NCBI GenBank assembly: GCA_022402405.1
Contig: JAKRSG010000063.1
Location: 1 to 32,055 of the forward strand
Source of the DNA: Bacteroidia bacterium
GTDB taxonomy: Bacteria > Bacteroidota > Bacteroidia > UKL13-3
Reading direction: 5' to 3'
DNA: 32,055 nt
In this document: positions 1 through 25,585 of the stretch, in pieces
Layout: each line of letters begins with the position of its first letter
How positions within the stretch are numbered: the stretch's first letter is position 1
Made by a program: the position numbers and the translations under genes
Notes under the pieces: generated by a model
Seen by the model: the letters and a program-made list of their open reading frames with translations, nothing else
Database searches by the model: none
Told to the model about the DNA's origin: nothing

Positions 1-1494
1 TTGTGTTAAATGATAAAAAGGCTGAACACTCCAAGAATAATTTCTCTTTTCTTGTCGCACATTGTATTCTAACTGCCAACTTTTTTCTTTGTGTAAGTCG
101 GGGTTACCTAAATAATCAAAAGCATCCATAGGAATAAACAAATAAAACCCATATCGCTCGTTGCTACTAGGGTTTCGTTCGGCATAACCCATGCTAATAT
201 TTTGTCTGAACCCACCTTTATGCTGCAGGCTATGAATCCATGCAAAGCTTTTTAGATGGTTTATTTTAGCTTGAAGGATATCATGGTTGAAACCCACCCA
301 AGATTCTGCTCCAATACTTGGTTCAGCATAATGTTTTACATAATCTATACGACCATGAAAACGCATTTGGTAGTTTAAAGTAACATCGTAAGCATACTGA
401 AAAGCCAAGCCAGCGTTCTGAAGAATGCTGTTAGGTAAGGTTTGCATAAACATGATTGGATCGGTATTATTGGGATACATGGTCATGTCTGCACGCATAA
501 AATTCTGGTGTACATCTGCCCTTACTTTAAGTTGGTGACGATTTTTAGCTAATGAAATTTCGTTATAGGCACCAAATGTTCTGCTCCAGCTGGGCATATC
601 CATATGCATAGGAACAAATTCTCTTTGTGTGTCATCCATTTCATGATAGATATCGTTGGCATACAATTTTAACTCATTACTTTTAATAATTCCTTTTCCG
701 TCTGCATACAAATAGGAGATAGAGCCAATATGCGCATTAGCAAGGCCAACATCCATGGGCAATGCAGGGTATCCCATATTACGGCCCCAATCGCCCAAAT
801 AGCTGAATCTTACTTGATAATTACTATCTATTTGCACCTGATAAGAAACAGCCATATTTAATTTTTCATAAGCACTGTATCTTATTCTTCCGCTTGGTGC
901 AAAATAGTCGCCAGCCTTTCTGTAAGTACCGCTTATTCTAAACGCATCTTTGGGCCCCGATTTTTCTACCGCAAAACTGGTTGCTATTCCATTGTTATTA
1001 GTAGAGTAGGATTGCACCACTTGGGCCAACCATTGTGTGTGACAAAGCGTATTAGGTGTTTTAAAAGAAAGGTTGATGTTTCCTCCAATTCCTCCACCAA
1101 CAAAGTTTCCTGAGGCGCCATGTGCAGCAGAAATGTTTTGTAAGTTTATTGGTTCAACATAAATAGAAACGGGGTCCATTTTATCTGGACAAGCGCCGTA
1201 AATTCGCATGCCATCTATACTTAAAGTAATCTGGTTAGCACTATAATTTCTGAGAGTAGGTTCCATTCCGTAGGCACCTCTTCTTATCAAATTTACTCCT
1301 TCCATTCTAGCCAAAATTTCCTCGGTGGTAGTAAGTTTGGAACTTTGGTAAAAGCTCAACTGATCTTTTCCTGGCGAACTTTGGATAGTAAGTTCGTTTA
1401 ATAAATGATTTTTGGTGGAGTCTGTTTGAGCCAAAAGCTTTACTGCTGGAAAAAGAATTCCCAGCAGTAAAGTATAAAATAAAACCTTTTTCAT
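1..1494 (-). CDS. TonB-dependent outer-membrane receptor, N-terminal 498 codons (C-terminus lies beyond the window edge); candidate NosA/OprC-type copper receptor
   Basis: This ORF is absent from the ORF track because it runs off the window. My translation from ATG 1494..1492 reads MKKVLFYTLLLGILFPAVKLLAQTDSTKNHLLNELTIQSSPGKDQLSFYQSSKLTTTEEILARMEGVNLIRRGAYGMEP..., a signal peptide followed by a TonB-receptor plug. I spot-checked the frame at 1494-1140, 840-781, 660-591, 300-241 and 60-1 and it was open at each. It contains DGMRIYGACPDKMDP (C-x3-M, about residues 102-106) and VPMHMDMP (about residues 295-301). The start overlaps the stop of the upstream gene by 1 nt. Confidence 0.8.
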   Translation of the reverse strand, partial: MKKVLFYTLLLGILFPAVKLLAQTDSTKNHLLNELTIQSSPGKDQLSFYQSSKLTTTEEILARMEGVNLIRRGAYGMEPTLRNYSANQITLSIDGMRIYGACPDKMDPVSIYVEPINLQNISAAHGASGNFVGGGIGGNINLSFKTPNTLCHTQWLAQVVQSYSTNNNGIATSFAVEKSGPKDAFRISGTYRKAGDYFAPSGRIRYSAYEKLNMAVSYQVQIDSNYQVRFSYLGDWGRNMGYPALPMDVGLANAHIGSISYLYADGKGIIKSNELKLYANDIYHEMDDTQREFVPMHMDMPSWSRTFGAYNEISLAKNRHQLKVRADVHQNFMRADMTMYPNNTDPIMFMQTLPNSILQNAGLAFQYAYDVTLNYQMRFHGRIDYVKHYAEPSIGAESWVGFNHDILQAKINHLKSFAWIHSLQHKGGFRQNISMGYAERNPSSNERYGFYLFIPMDAFDYLGNPDLHKEKSWQLEYNVRQEKRNYSWSVQPFYHLTQ

Positions 1495-2339
1495 TAGAAG
1501 GTTATATCAAAGAAAATTTGGTCGGTTAAGAGTTTGCCGTTTTTAGATAATTTAAGTTGAATGCGCCATAAGCCTGTCATGGTAAAATTTAACTTACCAG
1601 TATAATGACCATTAGCTGTATGAGTAGGGTTTACATTATTAGGAGACCCATGACCCATAGTTGGCATGGTTGGAATCATTTCGATGGTATAATCTGTGAT
1701 AGCAGGAAAATCCATCATGGTATTTCTTTTGTGGATGGTAAACTCGGCATCGTTCATGCCTACTTTTCCTTTAGATGGAAGCACAAAGCTTACAAATATT
1801 TTAGCGCTATCGTCTTCTACCATAACACTCGAAAACAATCTTTTTGGTGAGGCATCTTTTACTTCTACCTCTAATTCACCTTCACCCTCTAAGTCGTTTT
1901 TATGATTGTGGTATCCAATATGTAAATACCATTTGCCCATACCTGCAGTTGGCATTATAAATACAAGAGCGCTGCTATATAGATTGCTGGCAGGATCAAT
2001 ATCTTCATTTTCCTCTATCGGACAACTATGTTTCATCATACCCATATCCATCATAGCTCCAAAATGAAAATGACCATCTGTTAATCTGCTACCATCAACA
2101 GAATCGTACATGGCTACATAGATTTTATTGTAACCTGTAAATAAGGCTTGTTCAGAATATACAATAGCCTTGGCTTTTGCCCCTAAAACGTAGGTTTCGC
2201 CAATTTTTACCATTCCAGCTGGTGTTATTGGAGTTTGATTGTTAGGTGTTTCGTTAGAAGGTTTAGACTCTTCTTTTTTACAGGCAACCGCGCCCATTAT
2301 TACGCCCATTATTAGGGCTAATTTTAAAATTGTTTTCAT
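1494..2339 (-). CDS. Met/His-rich lipoprotein with two YtkA/FixH-like repeats (candidate periplasmic copper-binding protein)
   Basis: 281 aa with a lipoprotein signal (MGAVAC). Met/His clusters include GHFHFGAMMDMGMMKHSCP, MPTAGMGKWYLHIGYHNH and MIPTMPTMGHGSPNNVNPTHTANGHYTGKLNFTMTGLWRIQLKL. The pattern M-x-M-x-HGS...G-x-Y-x-G...M-x-G-x-W resembles the YtkA-like domain. The gene is translationally coupled to the TonB receptor. Confidence 0.6.
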   Translation of the reverse strand: MKTILKLALIMGVIMGAVACKKEESKPSNETPNNQTPITPAGMVKIGETYVLGAKAKAIVYSEQALFTGYNKIYVAMYDSVDGSRLTDGHFHFGAMMDMGMMKHSCPIEENEDIDPASNLYSSALVFIMPTAGMGKWYLHIGYHNHKNDLEGEGELEVEVKDASPKRLFSSVMVEDDSAKIFVSFVLPSKGKVGMNDAEFTIHKRNTMMDFPAITDYTIEMIPTMPTMGHGSPNNVNPTHTANGHYTGKLNFTMTGLWRIQLKLSKNGKLLTDQIFFDITF

Positions 2340-2399
2340 GAAAATATGTGTTAAATTAAATGGAATAAAAACCTTGCAAAAAATGGATAGAATATGTTT

Positions 2400-2792
2400 C
2401 TAGCATGATTTTGTAGTAGGTGGTTTTATTAATTCTAACACATGAGGATGAAGAAGGTCTGTGAAATATCTATGGAAAGATAATTTTTTATTTACAGGGA
2501 AAATAGGTTCAACCAACATTTGCTTAAAACAAAAAACTAAGGCTATTTCTGTAATTTCTTTTTTGTTGTTGGTTGGTAAGTTGTTTTCAGGTGCCGGATC
2601 TTCTACCTTTTCTAGCTGTTCATTTAATACACAACAACCTTTACAATCCTGGCGCTTTTCGTTTTCTTTATTAATACAAAGCTCCGCAGCAATCGCATCT
2701 TGGTTAGCCTTGAACCAAATGTACAAAGCACTTTTGCTCAAGACAGGTAGCAAGATTAATAAGGTTAACAATATGCTTAGGAAGCGTTTCAC
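2400..2792 (-). CDS. Hypothetical small membrane-anchored Cys-rich protein
   Basis: 130 aa with an N-terminal hydrophobic anchor (FLSILLTLLILLPVL) followed by ELCINKENEKRQDCKGCCVL (C-x11-C-x2-CC). It is co-directional with nosY and starts 45 nt after its stop. No function is recognisable. Confidence 0.5.
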   Translation of the reverse strand: MKRFLSILLTLLILLPVLSKSALYIWFKANQDAIAAELCINKENEKRQDCKGCCVLNEQLEKVEDPAPENNLPTNNKKEITEIALVFCFKQMLVEPIFPVNKKLSFHRYFTDLLHPHVLELIKPPTTKSC

Positions 2793-2837
2793 AATGCGAA
2801 GTTAATTAATTGGTTTTTATTTTTTACATGATTTTAA

Positions 2838-3605
2838 TTAGTAATCTTTTTTTAAGAATTTTTTTACTGCAAAACTTAAAGGGAATCCAATCCAAAGTAA
2901 GAGTACAATATATATTATGGTTGAACCTAAACTTGATCCAATAAATTTCTCCATTATGGCACCTGTTAATCCCATAAGTGCTGAAATGTCTATCTTAAAA
3001 ATAAATAATATTCTGCATAAATCGATTGGGTTAAATAAGCTTAATGTAATGCCATATTTTTCTATTGGATATTCGCTCATAGTCTGAATTAACATCAAAA
3101 TTATGCCATCATAAATGGCTAAGAAATAAATACCAAGCAAAATACTAGTACCAATTCCTTTTACTTTTTCATCTATCGAAAAGGCAATCCAATTGCTAAT
3201 TGCAGAGAATATGAGTGTTAGAAATGTGCTATTCACCATAATTGAAAACAAAAATGAGCCATCCGAAAACAATACTAATGCCAAGCCAATAGCACTTAAC
3301 TGAACTAACAATAAGGCGAATACATTAGATAAAAACTGACTAAAAAAAATATATTTTCTTTGAATTGGTTGGGTTAATAAGAGTCGGATAAAGTCTGTTG
3401 ATTGGTAGATGTGACTTACAGTATAAATCATCACCACTATAGGAATAAGAATAAGTAAGGTATTATGAATTCCAATTATGGCTTTGTCTTGATCGTTTCC
3501 AAGTGTGAATAATCCAACACAAATCACAAAAAGCAATACACCATAAACCAGCATGAACTTACTTTTAAGTATATTTAGGGTAAGATATTTTGTTATTTTT
3601 ATCAT
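2838..3605 (-). CDS. nosY: NosY, ABC-2 type permease of the NosDFY complex
   Basis: 255 aa, very hydrophobic, with about 6 TM segments. It overlaps nosF by 4 nt (ATGA) and holds the canonical position after nosD-nosF. Confidence 0.8.
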   Translation of the reverse strand: MIKITKYLTLNILKSKFMLVYGVLLFVICVGLFTLGNDQDKAIIGIHNTLLILIPIVVMIYTVSHIYQSTDFIRLLLTQPIQRKYIFFSQFLSNVFALLLVQLSAIGLALVLFSDGSFLFSIMVNSTFLTLIFSAISNWIAFSIDEKVKGIGTSILLGIYFLAIYDGIILMLIQTMSEYPIEKYGITLSLFNPIDLCRILFIFKIDISALMGLTGAIMEKFIGSSLGSTIIYIVLLLWIGFPLSFAVKKFLKKDY

Positions 3606-4312
3606 GATTTGATTTCTTTTTCAAGCATAATTTCGGCAATTGTTTTACCTAATTTCTGCTGACCATTTTTCTCTTTTAGGTCGTTTATAGTTTCAAAGAA
3701 TAATACTTTTCCTTCCTGTAAAAACAATACATGAGAAGCAATTTCATCTAAATCGTTTAAGATATGAGAGGTTATAAGAATGGTTTTATTCTCTCTTTCT
3801 TGTGTAATTTTATCCTTTAATATTTCAGAAGCTACGGGGTCTAAACCAGCAGTTGGTTCATCCAGAATAAGTATTTCTGGGTTAAACATAAATGCTAGAG
3901 CTGCGCTTACTTTTTGTATGGTTCCGCCACTTAGCTGACCTAAATTTTGATGTTCTATTTTTTTTAAGGCAAATTGTTCGAAGAGTTGTTCATCGAGATT
4001 TTTAACGTCTCTAATTTCTTTCATCATTTCGAAAAGCTGGGCTAATTTCATGTTCTCTGGGTACCTTCCCATTTGAGCCATGTATCCAATTTTGTTGCGG
4101 TATTCCGGACCTGCTTGAATAGATTTGCCTTCAATTAATATATCGCCTGTTTGAAACTCTGTTAATCCTAAAATGCACTTGATTAAAGTGGTTTTGCCAG
4201 TGCCATTTTGCCCAATAAGTCCGGCAATCATGCCCTTTTTAAGCTCCACATTTATGCCTTGCAATACGGAGTGTTTGCCGTATTTTTTATGTAAGTTTTG
4301 AACGCTTATCAT
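3602..4312 (-). CDS. nosF: NosF, ABC transporter ATP-binding protein
   Basis: 236 aa with Walker A GQNGTGKTT, ABC signature LSGGTIQK and Walker B ILILDEPTAGLD. It overlaps the nosD stop by 1 nt. Confidence 0.9.
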   Translation of the reverse strand: MISVQNLHKKYGKHSVLQGINVELKKGMIAGLIGQNGTGKTTLIKCILGLTEFQTGDILIEGKSIQAGPEYRNKIGYMAQMGRYPENMKLAQLFEMMKEIRDVKNLDEQLFEQFALKKIEHQNLGQLSGGTIQKVSAALAFMFNPEILILDEPTAGLDPVASEILKDKITQERENKTILITSHILNDLDEIASHVLFLQEGKVLFFETINDLKEKNGQQKLGKTIAEIMLEKEIKS

Positions 4313-5565
4313 TAAATTTTTCTCATTAAAGGGTAGTCGTCTTTTAAGTTTTCTGGTGTTAAAGATGGTAATATTTTTTCTAATACATTCAGTAAGTCTG
4401 CCAAGAAACTTTGTAATAAAATAATAGTGCTTGGATATTCTTCTATTATTCCTGTTAACATATTCATGGGTCTGTAACTTAAATCGCCCATGCCATCTTT
4501 ATTTAAATCGTAGCCTTGATATTTGTCCCAATAATTATGTTTTAAGGTGTTTAACACTGTAAAACCATTGGTTGCATAATCAAAGGTGTTGGTCATAAAA
4601 TTGTTGAACCTAAAATTATTATCGTCGCAGCTGGCTTGCATGCGAAGGGCATAACCATTGTTCGAAAAATGATTGTTTATAAAGTCTGCTCTACTGCACC
4701 CATCCATAAAAATGCCAACTGTATTTTTATCAAAATTATTCTTGTAAAGCTTGCTATCACGAATGTCCTTCAGTAATATTCCATACGAAGAACTACCCCA
4801 GTTTTTATCAAATTTATTCTTTACCATCATAATAAATTGGCTATACATAACGGCCACTCCAGCGCCATTAGCCGCAAAGGTGTTATTGTAGTATGTATCC
4901 GAATCAGAAAACATAAAATGCAAACCGTATCTAAGATTGCCTTCACTATGATTGTTGGCTATGATAGAGTGCTTTACAAATTCAAAATAAATACCATCTC
5001 TTTGTTTTTTAATATTATTGCTAAATATAAAGTTATGTGCAGATTTCCAACAATGAACGCCGTTTCCAACATGGTTTTGCTCTCTGTTTGGTCCGGTAAT
5101 TTGGTTGTTTTGAACCAAACAATAAAAAGAATTAGATAAATAAATCCCAAAGAAATTATTTTCCAGCACATTATTTAAAATTCGCGCAAAACTCTTTTCG
5201 TAAACCTTTATTGCTGCAATATCTTCTAAGTCGGAGAATCCTGAATTTATGAGTTTAAATCCGTTTATGGTAACACAGTCAGAAAGAATTGAAATTATCT
5301 CATGTTTTAGTTCTCCATCCAAAATGGGAAGGTTTTCGCCGATGAGAGTAAGTGGTATCTTAATATTAATATTTGCCTCTTTGTAGTGCCCAGCTTTTAC
5401 CAAAATAGTATCGAATGCATTGGCCTTGTTAATGGTTTCTTGTATTGGTGTCTGACCTGACATAGGTTCAACCAGCCATTTTTTACCATAAACAGATGGT
5501 ACGAGGAATATTATAAATAAAAATAGAATAAACTTATTCATGAACAATTTCTTCTGATTTGCCAC
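4312..5565 (-). CDS. nosD: NosD, periplasmic parallel beta-helix copper-centre maturation protein
   Basis: 417 aa with a signal peptide (FILFLFIIFLVPSVYG) and repeated N-x-I/F-x-x-N-x-x-G-I beta-helix repeats. It lies between nosL and nosF. The track start at 5565 is GTG. The ATG at 5541 (MNKFILF...) gives an 8-nt overlap with the nosL stop and is at least as likely. Confidence 0.9.
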   Translation of the reverse strand: MANQKKLFMNKFILFLFIIFLVPSVYGKKWLVEPMSGQTPIQETINKANAFDTILVKAGHYKEANINIKIPLTLIGENLPILDGELKHEIISILSDCVTINGFKLINSGFSDLEDIAAIKVYEKSFARILNNVLENNFFGIYLSNSFYCLVQNNQITGPNREQNHVGNGVHCWKSAHNFIFSNNIKKQRDGIYFEFVKHSIIANNHSEGNLRYGLHFMFSDSDTYYNNTFAANGAGVAVMYSQFIMMVKNKFDKNWGSSSYGILLKDIRDSKLYKNNFDKNTVGIFMDGCSRADFINNHFSNNGYALRMQASCDDNNFRFNNFMTNTFDYATNGFTVLNTLKHNYWDKYQGYDLNKDGMGDLSYRPMNMLTGIIEEYPSTIILLQSFLADLLNVLEKILPSLTPENLKDDYPLMRKI

Positions 5566-6526
5566 TTTCTTTTAAGCCAGGAAATAAGATAGGAATATTT
5601 TCTTTATTCCTAAAAAATGCCAAGCCGCTGCCCATCGGGCTTTTAATGTTTTCATTTTGCACATAAAAGGTTTGGTTCGAACCAATTAATTTTCCTGGGT
5701 TATCTACTGCCACCACAAAGTTGGATTGTATACTTGGATTATTTTCTTTAACATACAGTTCATAGCAATGGTAATCGTCGAATTTAAATGTTTTGCCTTT
5801 TTGAGTTAGAATAGCCATTCCAAATTTGGTGTCCATGATTTTCATTTTGCAATAATCGCAATCATCTTTTCCAAAATTAATTTCTGAAACAGAAGATGAG
5901 CAAGAACTCAAAAAGCCAATAAGTAGGAGAGAGGCAACGGCATTTACTTTAGATAGTTTTCTTTTTTTTATCCATTCAAAAGCCCAGGCAGAAAGGGCGA
6001 TGATCCCTACCAAAACGATAAGCCAGCCTCCTATAGCTGGAAGAGAAAGTGCCCTAAAGTTTAGTAAATCTTTATATCCTAAAACAGGAGGTTGATATGA
6101 CATTCCTGGAACATTTATAGGTGCGGTTGGGTCTAGATTATGACCATAGTCGTAGCCCCAACGGTAAAAATCAGCGAGGGCTATAATGCCTCCTAAAATA
6201 CAAAGTATTGAAAAGGCTTTTAATAAGTTGTAATTGCCAATAGCGGCAACAATAACCCCAAGTATAATAAAGGTTATCAGAACATATTTTAAAAAAGTGA
6301 ATTCTGGAAACATCTCGGGTTTAATATGTCGCATCCCAATATAGTGGTTTAACCCATTTATAATATCTACATCACCTTTTACATCGTTATACCAAATGGT
6401 GATAGATAATCCTTCTGGATATTGTGGGGCGTATAGAAATATCTCCCATAGAGGTAGATATAAAGATGCAATTACAGCAAGACTCGATATTCCTAAGGCT
6501 ATTCTGAAATACAAATTAAATTTCAT
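5534..6526 (-). CDS. nosL: Fusion ORF: N-terminal 4-TM membrane domain (in the position of the clade-II nos membrane gene) joined to a C-terminal NosL copper-chaperone lipoprotein domain
   Basis: 330 aa. Residues 1 to about 190 carry four hydrophobic segments (LPLWEIFLYAPQYPEGL...). Next comes KKRKLSKVNAVASLLLIGFLSSC, which is a complete lipoprotein signal peptide without a Met. This is followed by the NosL-like DCDYCKMKIMDTKFGMAILTQKGKTFKFDDYHC. The junction sits on an A8 run (see findings). Confidence 0.75.
   Translation of the reverse strand: MKFNLYFRIALGISSLAVIASLYLPLWEIFLYAPQYPEGLSITIWYNDVKGDVDIINGLNHYIGMRHIKPEMFPEFTFLKYVLITFIILGVIVAAIGNYNLLKAFSILCILGGIIALADFYRWGYDYGHNLDPTAPINVPGMSYQPPVLGYKDLLNFRALSLPAIGGWLIVLVGIIALSAWAFEWIKKRKLSKVNAVASLLLIGFLSSCSSSVSEINFGKDDCDYCKMKIMDTKFGMAILTQKGKTFKFDDYHCYELYVKENNPSIQSNFVVAVDNPGKLIGSNQTFYVQNENIKSPMGSGLAFFRNKENIPILFPGLKESGKSEEIVHE
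5962..5969 (-). other. A8 homopolymer (T8 on the plus strand) at the membrane-domain/NosL junction; candidate indel or slippage site
   Basis: The minus strand reads GCT TTT GAA TGG ATA AAA AAA AGA AAA CTA. TGA-ATG is present in the -1 frame immediately upstream (5978..5973). Confidence 0.7.
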
Positions 6527-6535
6527 GTTATTAGT

Positions 6536-6568
6536 TTAAAACCAACAGCCTTAAGAAGGCTGTTGGTT
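6536..6568 (-). terminator. Perfect 13-bp stem-loop between nosZ and the nosL fusion gene (partial terminator, attenuator or mRNA-stabilising hairpin)
   Basis: AACCAACAGCCTT-aag-AAGGCTGTTGGTT at 6540..6568. On the minus-strand RNA it is followed only by UUUUAAAC. Confidence 0.35.
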
Positions 6569-6640
6569 GGTTTTTTATTGGGGTTTTATTCGAGTGAGTG
6601 AACTAATGAATTAGTTTATGAATGTTTCTAGGCATTTAAA

Positions 6641-8629
6641 TTATTTAGCAGGTGCTGGTGCAACTTTTCCGGTAGAGAAGCTTAATGGAACATTAGAACC
6701 TGCTGGCGAAACTCTAACGTATCCTTGCATTTCTTGATGCAAAGCTGAACAGAAGTCGGTACAATACATTGGGAAAACACCTACGCGGTCTGGCGACCAT
6801 TTTAACGTAGCTGTTTCGCCTGGCATAATTAATAATTCTGCATTGTTAGCACCTTTTACAGCAAATCCATGTGGTACATCCCAATCTTGCTCTAAGTTTG
6901 TTACGTGGAAGTAAACTACATCTCCCATTTTAACACCTTCAATATTATCTGGTGTAAAGTGTGAACGGATAGAGGTCATCCAAACATGTACTTCGTTTCC
7001 TTTTCTTTCTACCTTGGCTTGAGCTTCTCCTTTAGCAGCATATGGATGTTTGTTCTCTTCTATTTTGAAGATTTTAACACTGTTTTTAGCTACTAAATCT
7101 GCTGGAATAGCTTCTGCATAGTGAGGTTCGCCAGTAGTTGGGAAGTCTAATAATAACTTCATTTTTTCACCTTCAATGCTGTAAAGTTGTGCCGACTGAG
7201 TAAGTTCTGGTCCGGTAGGTAAATAACGATCTTTGGTGATTTTGTTATAAGCAATCACATATTTTCCCCAAGGCTTTGTTGTTGGTCCGCCCGGTACGCT
7301 TAAGTGACCAATAGAATAATAAGTAGGAACACGGTCAACTACTTCTAATTTTTCTACGTTCCATTTTACGATTTCAGAGGAAACGAAGAATGAAGTATAA
7401 GCAAAACCATTGGCATCAAACTCCGTATGCAAAGGTCCAAGGCCTGGTTTTTTAACTTCGCCATGTAATACGGCATCGTATTTTAACACTGGAATACCTT
7501 GGTAATCGCCTTCAAAAGTTTTAGCTTCGATAGCTTTAGTAATTTTATCAAAAGAGAATACAGGGATAACAGCGGCTAATTTACCTGAAGCTACAATGTA
7601 TTTTCCGCTTGGGTCAACATCGCAGCCATGTGGTGATTTAGGGCATGGCATAAAGTATACTAAACCTTCGTATTCTTTAGGATCTAACATGATAGATTCT
7701 GTTAAGATTTCGCTTTTTGCAGAATGTGTTTCATCGCTATAAGTGTTGTGTGCATAACGAACTTTTTTCTTAGTTCCTTTACCTTGTTTAACAAGCTCTT
7801 CACATTTTTTCCAGTTTACAGCCATAACAAAGTCTTTATCTTTTTGTGAAGCGTTTACTTCTAATAAAGTATTAGCTTGCTCAGAGTTATAACAAGAGAA
7901 AAATACCCAGTCGCCAGAAGCTTTTTTACCAGCACGAGCTAAGTCGAAGTTCATACCTGGTAATATAATTTGGAAACTTAAGCTCATGTTACCAGATTTT
8001 GGGTCAATACCAATAAAGCTAACCGTACCTTTAAAGTTTTCTTTGTAGGTGTCTATAGATACATCTGGATTGCTGGCAGCGTCGTCCATAGGGTAACTAA
8101 AACGAGTACCAGCCACAACGTATTCAGAGTTTTGAGTAATGAATGGAGAGCTATGGTTACCGCTCGAATTAGGTATCTCAATAATGTCTACAGTGCGGAA
8201 TGTTTTTAAGTCGATACGAGCAATACGTGGAGTATTGTTAGCATTAATAAAAGCCCATCTTCCATCATGAGCTCCCTCCGAAACAGATAGAGCAGGGTGA
8301 TGCGAATCATCCCAAGGCACAAATCCATGTGAAGTATTTAACATAGGTTTGGTTTCTTCGCTATATCCATAACCAGAGGTTGGGTCAACTGAAAATACTG
8401 GAATAATTCTGAATAATCTGCCAGAAGGTATTCCGTATACCGACATCTGTCCGCTGAAACCACCCGATACGAAGTTGTAAAACTCATCGTATTTTCCAGG
8501 CTCTACGTATACTTTAGAAGCTGCATCTTTGTTTGAACCGGATTTTGCACCTTTGTCTTTGCAAGCACCAAACATAGTTACTACCATAATTAGCGCTACG
8601 GTAATAATCTGAATTGATTTTGTTCTCAT
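6641..8629 (-). CDS. nosZ: Nitrous-oxide reductase NosZ, clade II (Sec/lipoprotein type)
   Basis: 662 aa. The N-terminus MRTKSIQIITVALIMVVTMFGAC has no twin-arginine motif. It carries the CuZ histidine motif WDDSHHP and the C-terminal CuA motif CTDFCSALHQEM. Confidence 0.97.
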   Translation of the reverse strand: MRTKSIQIITVALIMVVTMFGACKDKGAKSGSNKDAASKVYVEPGKYDEFYNFVSGGFSGQMSVYGIPSGRLFRIIPVFSVDPTSGYGYSEETKPMLNTSHGFVPWDDSHHPALSVSEGAHDGRWAFINANNTPRIARIDLKTFRTVDIIEIPNSSGNHSSPFITQNSEYVVAGTRFSYPMDDAASNPDVSIDTYKENFKGTVSFIGIDPKSGNMSLSFQIILPGMNFDLARAGKKASGDWVFFSCYNSEQANTLLEVNASQKDKDFVMAVNWKKCEELVKQGKGTKKKVRYAHNTYSDETHSAKSEILTESIMLDPKEYEGLVYFMPCPKSPHGCDVDPSGKYIVASGKLAAVIPVFSFDKITKAIEAKTFEGDYQGIPVLKYDAVLHGEVKKPGLGPLHTEFDANGFAYTSFFVSSEIVKWNVEKLEVVDRVPTYYSIGHLSVPGGPTTKPWGKYVIAYNKITKDRYLPTGPELTQSAQLYSIEGEKMKLLLDFPTTGEPHYAEAIPADLVAKNSVKIFKIEENKHPYAAKGEAQAKVERKGNEVHVWMTSIRSHFTPDNIEGVKMGDVVYFHVTNLEQDWDVPHGFAVKGANNAELLIMPGETATLKWSPDRVGVFPMYCTDFCSALHQEMQGYVRVSPAGSNVPLSFSTGKVAPAPAK

Positions 8630-8655
8630 ATATTTTTAAATTGGGTTTTACTTAA

Positions 8656-9147
8656 TTATTTTAATCCATCATTCATGCGCAAAAACTCTAACACGTTTCT
8701 AGCATCATCATCCGAAAGGTTTTGATTTGGCATACGAACCAAACACTCTTCCAACATCGCTATTGCTGCTGGATCTTTGTCTAACATCTCTGCAGCATTT
8801 GTAATAAAGTTCATAATCCACTCTGGCTTTCTTCTTTCGGTAACACCTTTGAAGCCGGGACCAACTAAACGTTCTTCTGTAAGTCTATGACAAGATCCAC
8901 ACTTCATATCGTAAATTCCTTTACCTCCATCGGCAAAGGCTTTGTTTAATGTTGGATCTAATTTAATGTCAGTAAATTTTCCTATTCCCTTGTCACTAGT
9001 TTCTTCTGCACTTGCCTCTTGGGTTTGGTCTGAACCAACTTCTTTGCTCGCCGATGCATTTGCGTTCGAGCTGTTGTTTTCTCCACCGCATGATGCCATC
9101 AGAAATATGGCTAAAATGGCGGTTACAGATAAGCTTATTTTTTTCAT
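8656..9147 (-). CDS. Monohaem c-type cytochrome lipoprotein, probable electron donor to NosZ
   Basis: 163 aa with a lipoprotein signal (FLMASC), a low-complexity linker and a single CGSCH haem-binding motif with a distal Met (VRMPNQ). It is the first gene of the operon and ends 26 nt upstream of nosZ. Confidence 0.85.
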   Translation of the reverse strand: MKKISLSVTAILAIFLMASCGGENNSSNANASASKEVGSDQTQEASAEETSDKGIGKFTDIKLDPTLNKAFADGGKGIYDMKCGSCHRLTEERLVGPGFKGVTERRKPEWIMNFITNAAEMLDKDPAAIAMLEECLVRMPNQNLSDDDARNVLEFLRMNDGLK

Positions 9148-9166
9148 GTTTTGTTAGTTTTAATTC

Positions 9167-9180
9167 GGATGTAAAGGTCC
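9167..9180. promoter_or_regulatory. GGAT-N6-GTCC operator-like site S1 (GGATGTAAAGGTCC), 20-33 nt upstream of the cyt c ATG
   Basis: Matches site S2 at 12/14 positions, plus a shared CGT flank. Related sites occur at 13581 and 25547. Confidence 0.5.
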
Positions 9181-9202
9181 GTATTTCACTTCTAATAGTT
9201 CT

Positions 9203-9216
9203 ATGACCGATGTCAA
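9203..9216. promoter_or_regulatory. CRP/FNR-type palindrome ATGAC-cgat-GTCAA
   Basis: Has the TGAY-N4-RTCA geometry. Its centre is 22 bp from the next box, and it lies 56-69 nt upstream of the cyt c ATG. Confidence 0.45.
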
Positions 9217-9224
9217 TAACTGAA

Positions 9225-9238
9225 CTGATATTTGTCAT
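9225..9238. promoter_or_regulatory. CRP/FNR-type palindrome CTGAT-attt-GTCAT
   Basis: This 14-mer is identical to 13563..13576. Confidence 0.5.
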
Positions 9239-9244
9239 AAATAA

Positions 9245-9258
9245 GGATGTTAATGTCC
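9245..9258. promoter_or_regulatory. GGAT-N6-GTCC operator-like site S2 (GGATGTTAATGTCC)
   Basis: Matches 13581..13594 (GGATGTTAATATCC) at 13/14 positions. Confidence 0.5.
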
Positions 9259-9267
9259 GTTATTAAG

Positions 9268-9306
9268 AAAAAAACAAAAAAAACCTCCTCTGTGCAGAGA
9301 AGGTTT
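9268..9306 (-). terminator. Strong intrinsic terminator (minus strand)
   Basis: The stem is 9281-9291 / 9296-9306 with loop gtgc. The single mismatch is C-A on the plus strand but a G-U wobble on the minus strand. On the minus strand it is followed by UUUUUGUUUUUUU. Confidence 0.7.
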
Positions 9307-9574
9307 TGTGTTGAGTGATTTGTGAGTAATTGTTAATGTTTCTTGTAACTGTATTTGTACTGATTTTTTCAGGAGCAAGTAAGCACAATAATAAATGCAT
9401 GACAATACCTAATTTTAGGTATTTTTAAGAATAAATTTAGAATTAAAAAGGAAATTGATTGGTTTTGGGAAGGGTAGATGTGGCAATAAATATTTTTAGG
9501 AGGAAATCCTATTGTACTGAAGAGTGAATATTGCCTGAATTTTTGTCTTTAAAATAGCCATATAGTTTTTGAAA

Positions 9575-9613
9575 AATGATAAAAGTCCCCAAGCAAAAAC
9601 CTTTGCCTGGGGA
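9575..9613 (-). terminator. Intrinsic terminator (minus strand) after the icd / small-ORF unit
   Basis: A 12-bp stem, TCCCCAAGCAAA-aacc-TTTGCCTGGGGA (9586..9613). The mismatch becomes a G-U pair only on the minus strand. It is followed by CUUUUAUCAUUUUUC. Confidence 0.6.
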
Positions 9614-9627
9614 AATTTTACCACAAA

Positions 9628-9831
9628 CTACACTCTATTTTTTGATTGTTTAACTGAGTTTAAATGCTCTGCAAATTTGCATATAAATGCTCCTAAGAAT
9701 ATACTCAGGGCAACAAATAAATGTCGGTGCAAATCTTCATTTGAACATACGGCTAAATAGATGCATATAATCATAAAGATTAAAGTAGATGCAAATTTTA
9801 TAATTAACGATATGTTGTTTTTTGATATCAA
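9628..9831 (-). CDS. Possible small two-TM membrane protein
   Basis: 67 aa with two hydrophobic segments (LIIKFASTLIFMIICIYLAV, LFVALSIFLGAFIC). It starts 30 nt after the icd stop, and its stop lies 15 nt upstream of the 9586..9613 terminator. No homology was recognised. Confidence 0.35.
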   Translation of the reverse strand: MISKNNISLIIKFASTLIFMIICIYLAVCSNEDLHRHLFVALSIFLGAFICKFAEHLNSVKQSKNRV

Positions 9832-9861
9832 GGTATGTGTTGTTTAAAGTAACAAAAGGTA

Positions 9862-12003: not shown

Positions 12004-12056
12004 CTTCATAATTCATACTTCATAATTCATACTTCATAATTCATACTTCATAATTC
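12004..12056. repeat. 14-bp tandem repeat (cttcataattcata) x about 3.8, abutting the stop codon of the TDO-like gene
   Basis: Direct reading gives units at 12004, 12018, 12032 and 12046 (the last partial). One further unit precedes repeat copy B at 25407..25420. Confidence 0.9.
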
Positions 12057-12991
12057 TAAACCGGAGCTTTCTCCGTCTCAGAAGTTCCCCAATTAGCTAA
12101 TTCCGTTTCGCTCCATAACTCTGGGAAATAAATGCGTCTTTGGAAAGCTGGATGTAAATATTTTTCCCAATGACTGCCACCTGTAGCAGTTTTGGTTTCA
12201 CCTTTCGATTTCAAATAGGTTCTGGCCGTTTCTAAATGTACCATAGGCCAATCAATATTGTATTTTTTATCAAATGCGCGCAAGGCTTCAATTAGGGCTG
12301 TCTGACCCTTTTCGTCTAATTGGGGTAACATCGTTTTGTATTTGTTATTCAAATTATGGGTCTTCATAGTGTTGGCTGTTTGAACAAATAATGGCAGGTA
12401 TTTTTGTTCAAAATCACTTAGTGTTTTATTCTTTTTATTGGTCTCTCTATTAAAACCAGCTTCTTGCCAATATAATAAAGAAAATTTCTCTTCGATAGCG
12501 GTTTCTGGAGTTAAACGATTTCTTAAATAAGCAGGAATCAACAAATCTACATCGGTACACATAAGTTCTATAAACCTAAATTGAGCCGATTGAAATCCGC
12601 TAGCAGGAGATAGGCTCAGCCTAAATTGATTGTAATCTTCATAGCTCATCCCTTGATTCATAATGCTAAATGAACTGCATAGTAAATCGGTGTATCGAAC
12701 CATACGATATAGTTTCTCTACAAATAAATTAGGCTCCATATCGCTTAAACACAATTGATCTAGCTCATGACGAATAAGCTTCAATACCAATTCTGTTATT
12801 TGATGATACACAATAAAGATGGTTTCATCTTTAAAATCTGTGCGTGGATTTTGCAAGGTAAGCAATGTATCTACCTGCACATACTCCCAATAATTAATGG
12901 CTCTGTTGTGCTTTAAGCCTCTTAAATAATTCTCCGGATCTTGCCCGTTTGCTATTAATTTATCTTTTATCTCTTGTAAAATATTCTCCAT
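12056..12991 (-). CDS. Tryptophan 2,3-dioxygenase family protein
   Basis: 311 aa. YWEYVQVDTLLTLQ....ETIFIVYHQITELVLKLIRHEL resembles the conserved N-terminal helices of TDO. A TAAATTTG -7-like box lies on the minus strand at 13038..13031. Confidence 0.6.
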   Translation of the reverse strand: MENILQEIKDKLIANGQDPENYLRGLKHNRAINYWEYVQVDTLLTLQNPRTDFKDETIFIVYHQITELVLKLIRHELDQLCLSDMEPNLFVEKLYRMVRYTDLLCSSFSIMNQGMSYEDYNQFRLSLSPASGFQSAQFRFIELMCTDVDLLIPAYLRNRLTPETAIEEKFSLLYWQEAGFNRETNKKNKTLSDFEQKYLPLFVQTANTMKTHNLNNKYKTMLPQLDEKGQTALIEALRAFDKKYNIDWPMVHLETARTYLKSKGETKTATGGSHWEKYLHPAFQRRIYFPELWSETELANWGTSETEKAPV

Positions 12992-13056
12992 GTTTACTGG
13001 GTGCGTTTATGAAATTACGATTTCAAATATCAAATTTATTTTTTATTTGTTTGAAC

Positions 13057-13488
13057 CTATTTATTATTCAATACAAAAACATTGTCTTTCAGTTGCTCAG
13101 AAAGCTCATGTATCATAGTGTTTTCTAGCATTTTCTTTAAATCTGTGCGCACGTTTAAAAAATGATAATGAAGCGGACATGGATTTTTGGCGTTGCACTG
13201 TTTTAGACCCAAACCGCATGCCGTAAAAATTGAATCGCCATCTACCACCTTAACAATATCAATTAATCTTACTTTGCTTTCAGGTTTTATAAAAAAACCA
13301 CCACCCGGACCTTTAGATGATTGAATTAGGTCTGCATGAACTAATTTCTGAAGGAGTTTAGCAATGTATTGAGCAGGCACATCTGCCTTTTCTGAGATTT
13401 CATGTAAGTTAGATTTATGCCCATCCTGGGTGTTTTGGCAGATAATAATTACTGCTCTTATAGCGTATTCACAAGATTTTGAAAACAT
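13057..13488 (-). CDS. Rrf2-family transcriptional regulator (NsrR/IscR-like, probable Fe-S sensor)
   Basis: 143 aa with an N-terminal winged helix (SKSCEYAIRAVIII...ISEKADVPAQYIAKLLQKL) and a C-x6-C-x5-C-x2-H cluster-ligand motif (ACGLGLKQCNAKNPCPLH). Confidence 0.85.
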   Translation of the reverse strand: MFSKSCEYAIRAVIIICQNTQDGHKSNLHEISEKADVPAQYIAKLLQKLVHADLIQSSKGPGGGFFIKPESKVRLIDIVKVVDGDSIFTACGLGLKQCNAKNPCPLHYHFLNVRTDLKKMLENTMIHELSEQLKDNVFVLNNK

Positions 13489-13562
13489 AACTTTGATATA
13501 TAAAAGTTCGCAAAATAAGGTTTAATTCTGTTTCTAAAAACAGATATAAGTATCTTTTTTAT

Positions 13563-13576
13563 CTGATATTTGTCAT
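13563..13576. promoter_or_regulatory. CRP/FNR-type palindrome CTGAT-attt-GTCAT
   Basis: Identical to 9225..9238. It lies 75 nt upstream of the rrf2 ATG. Confidence 0.5.
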
Positions 13577-13598
13577 TTTCGGATGTTAATATCCGAAA
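13577..13598. promoter_or_regulatory. Operator-like inverted repeat S3, TTTCGGAT-gttaat-ATCCGAAA
   Basis: Perfect 8-bp arms. The core GGATGTTAATATCC matches the nos site S2 at 13/14 positions. It sits immediately upstream of the fasciclin -7 box. Confidence 0.55.
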
Positions 13599-13606
13599 TA
13601 TGTTTG
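13599..13606 (+). promoter_or_regulatory. Bacteroidota-type -7 box TATGTTTG for the fasciclin gene
   Basis: Matches TAnnTTTG and starts 29 nt upstream of ATG 13628. A TTTC lies 18 nt upstream in the -33 position. Confidence 0.4.
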
Positions 13607-14212: not shown

Positions 14213-14253
14213 AAAAGACTCATTTGTAGACAACAAATGGGTCTTTTTATTTT
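14213..14253 (+). terminator. Intrinsic terminator after the fasciclin gene, shared with the convergent mbnH-like gene
   Basis: AGACTCATTTGT-agaca-ACAAATGGGTCT (14216..14244) followed by TTTTTATTTT. The single non-Watson-Crick pair is a G-U wobble on the plus strand. Confidence 0.65.
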
Positions 14254-15302
14254 ATATAATCCCAATCACTAAGTGCTTTTAGAAAGGCAATTAATTGCTG
14301 CTTTTGTATGGGTGTTAAATTCAATTTTCTAGTTCCATTTCTTTTGTTTAATAGTGGATCTACATGTTTATCGTCGGATACACCTTCGTTGTAATGATCT
14401 ATTACTTGCTCCAAGTTGCTAAACCTCCCATCGTGCATGTATGGAGCCGTAAATTCAATGTTTCTAAGTGTTGGACTTAAGAACTTACCCATGTCTTCTT
14501 GCCTTTGTGTTAGGTTAAACAGGCCTTTATCGGAGCCGTTGTAGCTTATATTTAAACCAGTATTGTGAAATTCTTGATCGCTAAACAATGGATCAGAATG
14601 ACAATGAAAGCAATCGCCTTTCTCCGAGAAAAAAATTACATAGCCTTCATGTTCCATTTGGTTTAGGCTCAATTCTCTTCTTTTAAATTTATCGAATTTA
14701 GAGTTAGCGCTAATCATGGTTCTTATATGCTGAGCCAAAGCCATGGCTATGGTTTTTTTGAGTTGGTGGTAAGGAACTTCTTCTATTTTATTAATACCAA
14801 ACGCTTTCTTAAAAAGACTTGGATATACCGAATGCTCCGATAGTTTTTTATAAAGTTCATCGGGTTTTGTATTAAAAAATTCAGGCTCAAAATCGCCCAT
14901 AGCCAAGGTGTCTAAATTGTGCTCTGATCCTGTCCAATTAAACTTATTTCTAAAGGCTAAATTAACATGCGGTGGCACACTAATTTTAGTTCCCGACCAA
15001 GAATTAAAAATGGGTAAAGAAAAGGAATTTTCTTTAAGATGACAGCTGCTACACGACCTTCCATTGCTAGATAAAATAGGGTCTGAATAGAGCATTTTAC
15101 CTAATTGAATACCTTCTATTGTAAGTGGGTTTTCTTTGGATAAATAGGATTTTGGGAACCCCGTTGGAATGGCTAATGAATAGGGGGTAGGTTCATTATT
15201 TTCTGGATTTACCGTCGTTTCTTCCTGGCAAGATATGCTTAACAAAAGCATTCCTACACATGCCATTAGTTTAGTTTTGTATAAGGAAGGTGTCATAGCC
15301 AT
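14247..15302 (-). CDS. Dihaem cytochrome c peroxidase / MauG family protein (MbnH-like)
   Basis: 351 aa with two CxxCH motifs (CSSCH, CFHCH) and a lipoprotein-like signal (LLLSISC). It overlaps or abuts the upstream MbnP-like gene. Alternative starts are at 15296 and 15266. Confidence 0.85.
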   Translation of the reverse strand: MAMTPSLYKTKLMACVGMLLLSISCQEETTVNPENNEPTPYSLAIPTGFPKSYLSKENPLTIEGIQLGKMLYSDPILSSNGRSCSSCHLKENSFSLPIFNSWSGTKISVPPHVNLAFRNKFNWTGSEHNLDTLAMGDFEPEFFNTKPDELYKKLSEHSVYPSLFKKAFGINKIEEVPYHQLKKTIAMALAQHIRTMISANSKFDKFKRRELSLNQMEHEGYVIFFSEKGDCFHCHSDPLFSDQEFHNTGLNISYNGSDKGLFNLTQRQEDMGKFLSPTLRNIEFTAPYMHDGRFSNLEQVIDHYNEGVSDDKHVDPLLNKRNGTRKLNLTPIQKQQLIAFLKALSDWDYIK

Positions 15303-16017: not shown

Positions 16018-16024
16018 TTTAGAA

Positions 16025-16032
16025 CAAAGATA
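16025..16032 (-). promoter_or_regulatory. -7 box TATCTTTG (minus strand) for the mbnP-like gene
   Basis: The plus strand reads caaagata, which matches TAnnTTTG on the minus strand. It ends 7 nt upstream of ATG 16017. Confidence 0.35.
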
Positions 16033-16054
16033 AATCTGCTTTGAAAATGCTATA

Positions 16055-16068
16055 CTGACGACAGTCAG
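16055..16068. promoter_or_regulatory. CRP/FNR-type palindrome CTGAC-gaca-GTCAG between the divergent mbnP-like and nadA promoters
   Basis: Perfect 5-bp arms with a 4-bp spacer. Confidence 0.4.
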
Positions 16069-20289: not shown

Positions 20290-20309
20290 GCTGGGAATGA
20301 CTTTAAAAT

Positions 20310-22725: not shown

Positions 22726-22732
22726 ATTCGTT

Positions 22733-23764: not shown

Positions 23765-23810
23765 AGTTAATAATTTGATTCGAAATTCGTGAAACGGGGT
23801 ATGGTTGTTA

Positions 23811-23897: not shown

Positions 23898-24584
23898 TTA
23901 CCTGTTGGCTAATTGAATTAATTCCTGACGTTTGGCAATTTTTATATACTTTTTGTGTAGTTCTACTAAGCCTTCACTTTGCCATGATTTTAGAATACGT
24001 ATGATGGTTTCTGATGCTAAACCAGTATAGGCGCCCAAGTCTTCGCGAGTGAGTTGAATTTGAAGGTAGTTCTCGGCGTTTACACCATATTTTCTTTCTA
24101 AAAATAAGAGCGCCTCTGCTAATCTTTCCTTACTTGTTTTCTGAATGAAAAATACCGATTTTTCCTCTACTTCACTTATAGTTTTGGCCATTAATTTTAG
24201 AAATCCCATCATAAATTTTTTATTATGCTCTAATAATATAATTACTAATTCTTTTGGAACAAGTAAGGTGGAACAATCTTCCAAAACTTCAGCTGTTGCG
24301 ATATATTTTCCATTTCCAACTAATCCTCTATAGCCGATAATATCTCCCTCAATAGCCAACGATAAAATTTGATTATTTCCATTGGCGCCAGTTTTATAAA
24401 GCTTCACTTTTCCACTTATCATAATATGAATATATTTTACAGTGTCTGACTCGGTGAAAAGGAGCTGACCCTTTTTGAATTTTTTTTCGTTACTCTGGGT
24501 TTCTATGATCGACCATTCTTTTTGAGTACAAGCGCCAAATAGTTTATTACATTCGAGGATTATTTTAATAATTAGATCTTCCAA
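23898..24584 (-). CDS. Crp/Fnr-family transcriptional regulator
   Basis: 228 aa with a cNMP-binding-like beta-roll (FKKGQLLFTESD...ISGKVKLYK) and the C-terminal HTH TREDLGAYTGLASETIIRILKSWQSEG, which resembles FNR ...GLTVETISRLL. It has only three Cys (C12, C19, C104), so it lacks the classical FNR 4-Cys arrangement. Confidence 0.9.
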   Translation of the reverse strand: MEDLIIKIILECNKLFGACTQKEWSIIETQSNEKKFKKGQLLFTESDTVKYIHIMISGKVKLYKTGANGNNQILSLAIEGDIIGYRGLVGNGKYIATAEVLEDCSTLLVPKELVIILLEHNKKFMMGFLKLMAKTISEVEEKSVFFIQKTSKERLAEALLFLERKYGVNAENYLQIQLTREDLGAYTGLASETIIRILKSWQSEGLVELHKKYIKIAKRQELIQLANR

Positions 24585-25546: not shown

Positions 25547-25560
25547 GGATAATTTTATCC
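25547..25560. promoter_or_regulatory. Operator-like site S4, GGATAA-tt-TTATCC
   Basis: Perfect inverted repeat fitting GGAT-N6-ATCC. It shares the ATCCGA flank with site S3. Confidence 0.4.
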
Positions 25561-25571
25561 GATATTATTAT

Positions 25572-25585
25572 GTGATTTTTATCAG
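25572..25585. promoter_or_regulatory. CRP/FNR-type box GTGAT-tttt-ATCAG
   Basis: Matches TTGAT-N4-ATCAA at 8/10 positions. It begins 11 bp after the end of S4. Confidence 0.4.

Follow-up and report, generated by a model that had tools for sequence, protein, structure and literature searches.

A predicted control region for a Bacteroidota clade II nosZ operon combining tandem FNR-type boxes with two Rrf2-type operators

Introduction

Bacteria with clade II NosZ, among them many Bacteroidota, are considered major sinks of the greenhouse gas nitrous oxide (N2O). How expression of the enzyme is switched on in this phylum is the question raised by contig JAKRSG010000063.1 of a Bacteroidia bacterium (assembly GCA_022402405.1; 32,055 nt, 35% G+C; the whole contig is called the window below), which carries a cytochrome c-nosZ (cytc-nosZ) operon. 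We know of no NosR in Bacteroidota nosZ systems and of no proteobacterial regulator demonstrated in them, and the nosZ switch of the phylum is therefore essentially undescribed. An initial annotation of the window placed four sites in front of this operon, two palindromes with CRP/FNR geometry and two GGAT-N6-RTCC palindromes, and proposed dual control of nosZ by a CRP/FNR-type activator and a second factor, with the Rrf2 protein encoded nearby as the best candidate. The comparative tests described here support such dual control as a prediction. Positions 9167–9258 probably form the nos control region, in which FNR-type activation would be gated by an iron-sulfur (Fe-S) Rrf2 repressor with an NsrR-like regulon.

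Sequences and searches

A NosZ search returned 80 Bacteroidota loci (L001–L080; NosZ identity 72–82%) from Chitinophagales, Saprospiraceae, Cytophagales and unclassified Bacteroidia. Counts at nos promoters refer to the 74 usable loci for the TGAY boxes and the relaxed operator, and to 76 promoters for the strict operator. A search with the Rrf2 protein returned 80 metagenomic loci (identity 41–64%), and homologues of the cytochrome c were placed on contigs L161 and L162 (87% identity) and L163 and L164 (67% identity). Boxes were defined as TGAYN4RTCA, and operators as strict GGAY-N6-RTCC (GGATN6RTCC for the count in the window) or, phylum-wide, as relaxed RGAY-N6-RTCY. Chance levels were taken from shuffled sequence, with 100 shuffles for counts in the window and dinucleotide shuffles for the upstream regions of relatives; coding-sequence controls for the operator gave 0/74 and 0/8. 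The housekeeping promoter consensus of Bacteroidota consists of a −33 TTTG and a −7 TAnnTTTG element, the latter about 7 nt upstream of the start. A sigma-70 promoter scan of the window (4 matches versus 4.4 expected) is uninformative for this phylum.

The control interval in front of cytc-nosZ

Re-reading of positions 8900–9500 showed that the strings and coordinates annotated for the four sites, and the cytochrome c ATG at 9147 on the minus strand, are all correct. Read on the gene strand, the elements follow one another as terminator - aacGGACATTAACATCC - 7 nt - TGACAAATATCA - 10 nt - TGACATCGGTCA - 23 nt - GGACCTTTACATCC - 19 nt - ATG (Table 1). The two GGAT cores, named O1 (proximal) and O2 (distal), agree at 12 of 14 positions and both have the CGT flank, as described before. 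The two boxes between them (aTGACaaatATCAg and tTGACatcgGTCAt) are inverted repeats of the form 5-N4-5, related to TTGAT-N4-ATCAA, and their centres are indeed 22 bp apart. The O2 core, 7 nt upstream of the distal FNR-type box, sits within an extended palindrome, AATAAcGGAC-N6-ATCCtTATT, and the minus-strand terminator reported upstream of the sites was located at the edge of the regulatory region.

The interval had been described as lacking a −7 box. This holds for the exact pattern, since no TAnnTTTG occurs between 9148 and 9306, but not for a degenerate one. An offset of 23/24 nt from the proximal box falls on GGACCTTTA, where the best −7 match is GACCTTTA (9179..9172), with 4 of the 6 specified positions, embedded in O1. 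Because the offset lands on this element, transcription is predicted to start near 9168; O1 would also cover this predicted start. The degenerate −7 element fits an activator-dependent promoter. The proximal GGAT site had been thought to be placed like a repressor site, which agrees with our finding that it occupies the spot where comparable promoters carry TAnnTTTG.

Both motifs are enriched in the window. TGAYN4RTCA has 8 matches versus 1.9 expected, 7 of them intergenic, and GGATN6RTCC has four distinct sites (6 strand matches) versus 0.84 expected; none of the 100 shuffles reached 8 or 6, respectively. When their coordinates are compared with the open reading frame (ORF) map, all four GGATN6RTCC sites are intergenic and beside N-oxide genes. 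The two that lie outside the nos promoter (tcGGATGTTAATATCCga and GGATAATTTTATCC) are each 5 to 12 nt from a TGAY-N4-RTCA box. The four GGAT-type and seven TGAY-N4-RTCA sites counted earlier were all recovered, and one relaxed operator (AGATATAAGTATCT at 13542–13555) was added to them.

FNR-type boxes at Bacteroidota nos promoters

A TGAY-N4-RTCA box is present within 200 bp upstream of cytc in 65 of the 74 loci, compared with about 1.4 in shuffled sequence. Box density between −200 and −30 of the cytc ATG is 7.15 per kb; in the remainder of these loci (1.4 Mb) it is 0.196 per kb, a 36-fold difference. Exact box pairs 22/23 bp apart were found in 21/74 loci, and in 21 more the partner at that distance carries one mismatch. 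From the box end to an exact TAnnTTTG there are essentially two distances, 23 nt (13 cases) and 45/46 nt (24 cases), the second corresponding to 23 + 22. With its centre about 29 nt ahead of the −7 octamer, a box would lie at approximately −41.5, the class II activator position. The 23-nt distance also occurs at the fasciclin and MbnP promoters of the window, both of which have a perfect −7 box. The tandem TGAY-N4-RTCA box is a conserved property of Bacteroidota cytc-nosZ promoters, and the conserved 22-bp pair with its fixed 23-nt distance to the −7 box supports the CRP/FNR-type control of nos that had been suggested.

The two boxes of a tandem differ from each other among L001–L080: TGAY-wwww-ATCA predominates at the distal box (23/25) and TGATG..-GTCA at the proximal box (16/25), which hints that two Crp/Fnr paralogues, or different affinities, read the two positions.

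Footprint in close relatives

All four nos sites are in register in L161 and L163, although the sequence separating the two boxes, and that separating the proximal box from O1, has diverged; conservation at orthologous nos promoters is thus observed. O2 is kept in place (GGACATTAACATCC in the window, AGATATTGTAATCT in L161 and AGATAACCATATCC in L163) with its half-sites retained. In L161, its outer bases are changed symmetrically on both arms, which is what a dimer site would be expected to show. L161 has the same distal box as the window, and L163 departs from it at two central positions. A 25-nt block that includes O1 (CGGACCTTTACATCCGAATTAAAAC) is invariant in the three genomes. Additionally, L001 (NosZ 82% identical) keeps aGACCTTTACATCCGAATTAAA at the O1 offset from the 22-bp box pair, and L068 keeps GGACATTTGAGTCC at the same offset.

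With 35% G+C in the window and patterns that are short and degenerate, the four sites might be chance matches in AT-rich intergenic DNA. We give this practically no weight, as the comparative data refute it: the observed counts are not attained in any shuffle, the sites are in register in diverged relatives and the boxes are 36-fold enriched at nos promoters.

The palindromes are also inverted repeats, and could act as RNA hairpins (a leader structure or a terminator) instead of DNA sites. The terminator scan flags 9166–9181 on the plus strand, and the palindrome at 13574–13602 folds at −9.2 kcal/mol. However, the folds at the two nos sites are weak (−5.4 and −2.8 kcal/mol, stems of 3–4 bp and loops of 8 nt), and on this account the RNA reading was rejected as very improbable. 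The palindrome centre is not kept complementary, and an Rfam scan of the whole window matched no family. Moreover, O2 lies upstream of the activator boxes and downstream of the terminator, so it should not be transcribed with nos.

The GGAY palindrome and its association with rrf2

With its flanks, the operator is a palindrome of about 24 bp, wwwww(C/A)(G/A)GAY-N6-RTC(C/T)(G/T)wwwww, with A/T-rich arms. The first impression, from the strict GGAY-N6-RTCC count, was that the site is not conserved at nos promoters. This was dropped once an alignment anchored on the boxes showed a related AAAGAY-N6-RTCTTT that begins shortly after the −7 box in Chitinophagaceae and Saprospiraceae loci. The GGAT-N6-RTCC motif that had been attributed to a second factor is therefore one version of a conserved palindrome, with RGAY-N6-RTCY as its relaxed form. 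This relaxed operator was found upstream of rrf2 in 61/107 loci (shuffles ~2.5), of cytc-nosZ in 28/74 (shuffles 2.0), of norC in 7/11 (shuffles 0.33) and of scdA in 8/71.

Many NosZ loci have a divergent rrf2 beside cytc, and others have crp in that place. RGAY-N6-RTCY is present at the nos promoter in 13 of the 18 loci with an adjacent divergent rrf2 and in 12 of the 56 without; none of the 13 loci with an adjacent crp (not rrf2) has it. When rrf2 anywhere in the locus is considered, the counts are 19/26 with and 6/48 without (Fisher p=2.4e-7). The 80 loci of the Rrf2 search share only one gene, rrf2 itself; the strict motif was found in 16 of them and the relaxed form in most others. At rrf2 promoters, the operator has one fixed place, at about −57 to −63 from the ATG and 17–20 nt upstream of the −7 box, and the three closest relatives from this search reproduce the rrf2 - box - operator - fasciclin layout of the window. 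The operator upstream of rrf2 and the co-occurrence at nos point to Rrf2 as the putative binder, in line with the initial annotation.

Another factor, for example a second CRP/FNR paralogue, might bind GGAY-N6-RTCC, with rrf2 merely a co-regulated target. Its core, GGAYA-N4-TRTCC, has the same 14-bp 5-4-5 geometry as the FNR boxes and is unlike the canonical NsrR motif; several Crp/Fnr paralogues are usual in Bacteroidota genomes, and many loci have one near nos. We nevertheless consider this explanation unlikely, given that rrf2 alone is common to the 80 loci, with the operator at its fixed promoter place in most, and that none of the 13 nos promoters next to a crp but lacking an rrf2 carries the operator. 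The length of the palindrome, about 24 bp, and its A/T-rich arms also suit the operators of winged-helix Rrf2 proteins.

A further alternative concerns the function of the sites: O1 may be mainly a core-promoter or leader element and O2 a lineage-specific, functionless leftover, leaving nos under the FNR-type pair alone. The 25-nt invariant block runs past the palindrome into GAATTAAAAC, O1 overlaps the predicted −7 position, and TAnnTTTG lies inside many operators of rrf2 promoters. In addition, the distal operator was not seen in L001, the locus with 82% NosZ identity, and no full RGAY-N6-RTCY core was seen upstream of the box in L002. In L161 and L163, however, O2 has changed in sequence, symmetrically so in L161, yet is still a palindrome at the same position. 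At the fasciclin promoter the same palindrome is in the spacer, apart from a perfect −7 box, and in Chitinophagaceae it is downstream of a canonical −7 box with no TAnnTTTG within. Since the presence of the palindrome also tracks rrf2, a purely core-promoter role appears improbable, more so than binding by a different factor.

In many rrf2 promoters (L088, L094, L100, L103, L136 and L157), the operator has the form GGA-TAAATTTG-TCY, with a full TAnnTTTG inside the palindrome and a second TAnnTTTG about 20 nt downstream of the operator. These may be overlapping alternative rrf2 promoters, or the repressor site may have evolved from a −7 element.

The two candidate regulators

The Rrf2 protein (13057–13488) contains a C-x6-C-x5-C-x2-H arrangement that is conserved in all 25 aligned members of its clade, which should therefore hold an Fe-S cluster. 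Only the Rrf2 superfamily model passes its cut-off for this product, and a comparison with the PDB gave RsrR and IscR as the solved structures closest to it, ahead of NsrR. NsrR regulons and the NsrR motif, gATGyAT-N5-ATrCATc, have been described (PMC1274295). The content of the regulon predicted here is NsrR-like, with operators upstream of rrf2, scdA/RIC and cytc-nosZ in the window and, in relatives, of norC, scdA, rrf2 and nos. Because the ligand spacing is more like the Cys3-His set of IscR than the pattern of NsrR, the protein may differ from classical NsrR in cluster type and in the signal it senses.

Two family identities were tried and rejected. Canonical NsrR is ruled out by the hidden Markov model (HMM) score (30.9 bits against NCBIfam NF008240, cut-off 182) and by operator geometry, the NsrR operator being unmatched (GAY-N6-RTC here versus GAT-N13-ATC in the NsrR motif). 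For IscR, the HMM score is likewise below the cut-off (64.7 bits against TIGR02010, cut-off 207.55), and there is no isc/suf context, the neighbours being fasciclin, a tryptophan-2,3-dioxygenase (TDO)-like gene, nos, nor and RIC.

The Crp/Fnr protein (23898–24584) has cNMP_binding and HTH_Crp_2 domains. Its recognition helix, SETIIRIL (FNR: E--SR), aligns with VETISRLL of A. fischeri FNR, and the N-terminal FNR cysteine cluster is absent from its sequence.

Proposed mechanism

An activator of the FNR/CRP family, for which the 23898–24584 protein is the best local candidate, would occupy the abutting tandem, whose boxes lie 22 bp from each other, at about −41.5 and −63.5. From the class II position, the proximal box would recruit RNA polymerase; the −7 element GACCTTTA is presumably too degenerate to do so alone, and because it is poor an activator would be needed. 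Rrf2 would bind the two GGAY-N6-RTCC palindromes of about 24 bp that bracket the activator pair. At O1 it would cover the −7 element and the start point and so block polymerase. O2 is separated from the distal box by 7 nt, and Rrf2 bound there would crowd the activator, as footprints of about 24 bp and 22 bp would collide. The most likely outcome is an AND gate, in which the activator signal (low oxygen or nitric oxide, NO) would work only once NO or another cluster-damaging signal has removed Rrf2. This logic is suggested because the regulon (rrf2, fasciclin, scdA/RIC and nos, with norCB in relatives) resembles that of an NO-responsive repressor. Tentatively, Rrf2 may also gate synthesis of the activator itself, because crp is directly downstream of scdA, whose promoter carries an operator; the two genes are, however, separated by a weak hairpin. 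The sites, their statistics, their conservation in place, their fixed spacing to −7 boxes and their co-occurrence with rrf2 are observed; from these we infer which protein reads which site, whether the effect is repression or activation, what the signals are and where transcription starts.

In its wider form, for which we see slightly better than even chances, the proposal is that Bacteroidota possess an undescribed NO-responsive Rrf2 master repressor (with IscR-like Cys3-His, and GGAY-N6-RTCC or AAAGAY-N6-RTCTTT operators unrelated to the NsrR motif), which together with the abutting FNR-type tandem would switch clade II N2O reductase, NO reductase and RIC throughout the phylum. In the window, two operators would bracket the activator pair and block both polymerase and activator.

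Several observations weigh against gating by Rrf2 as drawn here. The strict operator occurs in just 3/76 nos promoters, and most other operator-bearing nos loci have the relaxed AAAGAY-N6-RTCTTT just past the −7 box, not on it; for this reason, placement of the operator over the −7 box is lineage-specific. The gaps in the distal operator in L001 and L002, the 5-4-5 geometry shared with FNR boxes, and the NsrR and IscR scores and NsrR motif mismatch given above count in the same direction, and the Crp/Fnr gene of the window is not kept beside the island in L163. NO sensing by Rrf2 is suggested by one thing, the content of the regulon (RIC, nor and nos), and the IscR-like Cys3-His spacing makes redox or Fe-S status a possible signal. 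O1 and O2 are 78–79 bp apart, about 7.4 helical turns, which argues against a simple repression loop; DNA looping between them is not proposed, as this is a non-integral number of turns.

Comparison with known systems

FNR and NsrR together control N-oxide genes in Proteobacteria, including aniA/norB in Neisseria and hcp-hcr and ytfE in E. coli. The predicted arrangement resembles these in combining an FNR-family box with an Fe-S Rrf2 operator that overlaps the core promoter, in a regulon with RIC/YtfE, NO reductase and denitrification genes, and in an autoregulated regulator gene. It differs in the use of a non-NsrR Rrf2, in an operator with a 14-bp GGAY-N6-RTCC core within about 24 bp instead of gATGyAT-N5-ATrCATc, in its clade II nosZ target, in the −7 TAnnTTTG promoter type and in the abutting 22-bp tandem bracketed by two operators. 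With IscR and RsrR it would share the winged-helix Rrf2 fold, the IscR-like C-x6-C-x5-C-x2-H region and a palindromic operator of about 24 bp; it is unlike IscR in a score below the equivalog cut-off, the lack of isc/suf context and a regulon of nos, nor and RIC.

In Wolinella succinogenes, the clade II nos cluster is controlled by Crp/Fnr-type Nss regulators. There too, as predicted for the window, clade II nos depends on proteins of the Crp/Fnr family and not on NosR, although the phylum and the type of nos cluster are different. We know of no Rrf2 operator described in the Wolinella nos system.

In clade I denitrifiers, the DNR motif CTTGATnnnnATCAAG is found upstream of nosZ (PMC1274295). 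The nos promoters under DNR, NnrR or FnrP (Pseudomonas, Paracoccus) are similar to that of the window in having an FNR-type palindrome upstream of nosZ at an activator position, and these systems also have a Crp/Fnr-family gene within the denitrification island. The Bacteroidota boxes differ in being TGAC/TGAT-N4-RTCA, with the tandem pair as the rule, no NosR and an added Rrf2 layer. The proximal box of the window is closest to the TTGAC-N4-GTCAA type, which has been assigned to HcpR (PMC1274295).

A literature search found no description of these motifs or of the control of N2O consumption in Bacteroidota, apart from one neighbourhood link: Rrf2 regulator genes are over-represented on clade II nos scaffolds of the CFB group (PMC6264515). 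That report gives the same association of rrf2, or in some cases of an nnrR-like gene, with cytc-nosZ, and no binding motif, promoter architecture or regulon; Bacteroidota nosZ is not treated in a paper on the CRP/FNR meta-regulon (PMC8510549). New here are the previously undescribed operator and the conserved tandem-activator design at Bacteroidota clade II nosZ, whereas the regulatory logic itself is known. The locus and its relatives supply cis-elements, two candidate regulators, a predicted regulon (nos, nor, RIC and rrf2) and a predicted AND logic. The arrangement is not surprising in principle, but it makes the control of N2O reduction in Bacteroidota directly testable; culturable relatives with this design include Flectobacillus longus (L026), Runella and Emticicia. 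Applied to metagenomes, the two motifs could help to predict which Bacteroidota restrict nosZ expression to the presence of NO.

Other promoters and genes of the island

The calls for cytochrome c, NosZ, NosL, NosD, NosF, NosY, Rrf2, Crp/Fnr, RIC and NorCB were confirmed by Pfam and NCBIfam. Coordinates are collected in Table 1.

Table 1. Positions of predicted regulatory elements and genes in the window.
Feature	Position	Strand	Remarks
O1, proximal Rrf2-type operator (predicted)	9167..9180	-	Plus strand GGATGTAAAGGTCC, gene strand GGACCTTTACATCC
Proximal FNR/CRP-type box (predicted)	9204..9215	-	Plus strand TGACCGATGTCA, gene strand tTGACATCGGTCAt; predicted class II position ~-41.5
Distal FNR/CRP-type box (predicted)	9226..9237	-	Plus strand TGATATTTGTCA, gene strand TGACAAATATCA; centre ~-63.5
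O2, distal Rrf2-type operator (predicted)	9245..9258	-	Plus strand GGATGTTAATGTCC, gene-strand core GGACATTAACATCC; centre ~-83.5 from predicted start
Intrinsic terminator of upstream unit	9307..9280 plus T-run	-	Terminator scan; upstream edge of nos regulatory region
Regulated operon (predicted)	1494..9147	-	ORF map, Pfam and NCBIfam
Cytochrome c	8656-9147	-	Operon gene, ATG at 9147
NosZ clade II	6641-8629	-	Operon gene
NosL-like	5534-6526	-	Operon gene
NosD	4312-5565	-	Operon gene
NosF	3602-4312	-	Operon gene
NosY	2838-3605	-	Operon gene
ORF without assigned family	2400-2792	-	Operon gene
YtkA-like protein	1494-2339	-	Operon gene
Rrf2-family regulator	13057..13488	-	Candidate binder of GGAY-N6-RTCC operators
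Divergent rrf2/fasciclin control region	13542..13606	.	Relaxed operator, box, operator, -7 box
Relaxed operator AGATATAAGTATCT	13542-13555	.	Over rrf2 -7 position
FNR-type box TGATATTTGTCA	13564-13575	.	Fasciclin promoter
Operator tcGGATGTTAATATCCga	13581-13594	.	Inside 23-nt spacer, fasciclin promoter
Perfect -7 box TATGTTTG	13599-13606	.	Fasciclin gene, ATG at 13628
MbnP-CCP operon promoter	16025..16067	-	Box 16056-16067, 23-nt spacer, -7 box TATCTTTG (16032..16025); without operator
NorCB	18573-20289		
Two FNR-type boxes	23812-23823 and 23864-23875	-	Upstream of glycosyltransferase-rml-norCB string
Crp/Fnr-family regulator	23898..24584	-	Directly downstream of scdA; candidate binder of TGAY-N4-RTCA boxes
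RIC/ScdA	24660-25382	-	Adjoins Crp/Fnr gene; ATG at 25382
scdA/RIC promoter elements	25547..25584	-	Operator and FNR-type box, 12 nt apart
Operator GGATAATTTTATCC	25547-25560	-	scdA promoter, 12 nt downstream of box
FNR-type box TGATTTTTATCA	25573-25584	-	scdA promoter

The fasciclin promoter has the geometry TGATATTTGTCA - 23 nt - TATGTTTG, and the rrf2/fasciclin layout also occurs in L081, L082, L098 and L163. The 12-nt spacing between box and operator at the scdA promoter is repeated at the scdA promoter of L163. The MbnP-CCP promoter, TGACTGTCGTCA - 23 nt - TATCTTTG, with the equivalent TGACAATGGTCA-23-TAACTTTG in L163, served as the internal reference for class II geometry. Of the two boxes upstream of the norCB string, the proximal one is followed, after 23 nt, by a weak −7 element, GAATTTCG. 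The L163 island is syntenic, in the order norCB - scdA - nadBA - MbnP - CCP - fasciclin - rrf2 - TDO-like - cytc - nosZ.

MbnP and the di-haem peroxidase (MbnH-like) form a periplasmic copper-related pair (14247–16067), whose FNR-type promoter without an Rrf2 operator is conserved in L163; the pair may be co-induced to supply copper for NosZ. A haem protein of the tryptophan-2,3-dioxygenase family is directly downstream of rrf2 in the window (12056–13488) and in L163 (8434–9786), and also in L164, which suggests an rrf2-TDO-like operon.

The norC gene begins just 20 bp past rmlD (window 18573–23875), with a glycosyltransferase-rmlC-epimerase-rmlD string upstream, so that norCB appears to be fused to this string, an unusual operon context for an NO reductase. 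The boxes at 23812 and 23864 are the only FNR-type boxes upstream of the rml-norCB string; in L163, norCB instead follows a CoA-ligase gene.

The long scdA leader contains, between the predicted promoter and the ATG at 25382, two tandem units of about 39 bp (ttcccgcagtggcgggatttcgctNtcgctcaaaattcg; 25420–25497), each of which holds a GC-rich hairpin, CCCGCAGTGGCGGG. The units may represent a REP-like element or structures in the leader.

The 550 bp from icd to the nos terminator (9307–9861) contain a 67-aa hydrophobic ORF (9628–9831) with its own terminator (9613..9586), followed by a stretch of about 280 bp with no convincing ORF, which ends at the 9307..9280 terminator and may represent either a gene remnant or a small RNA. 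In L161, this site between icd and cytc is taken by a 124-aa Ig-like lipoprotein gene, a homologue of which was sought in the window and is absent; parts of 9307–9861 are kept at the DNA level in L161.

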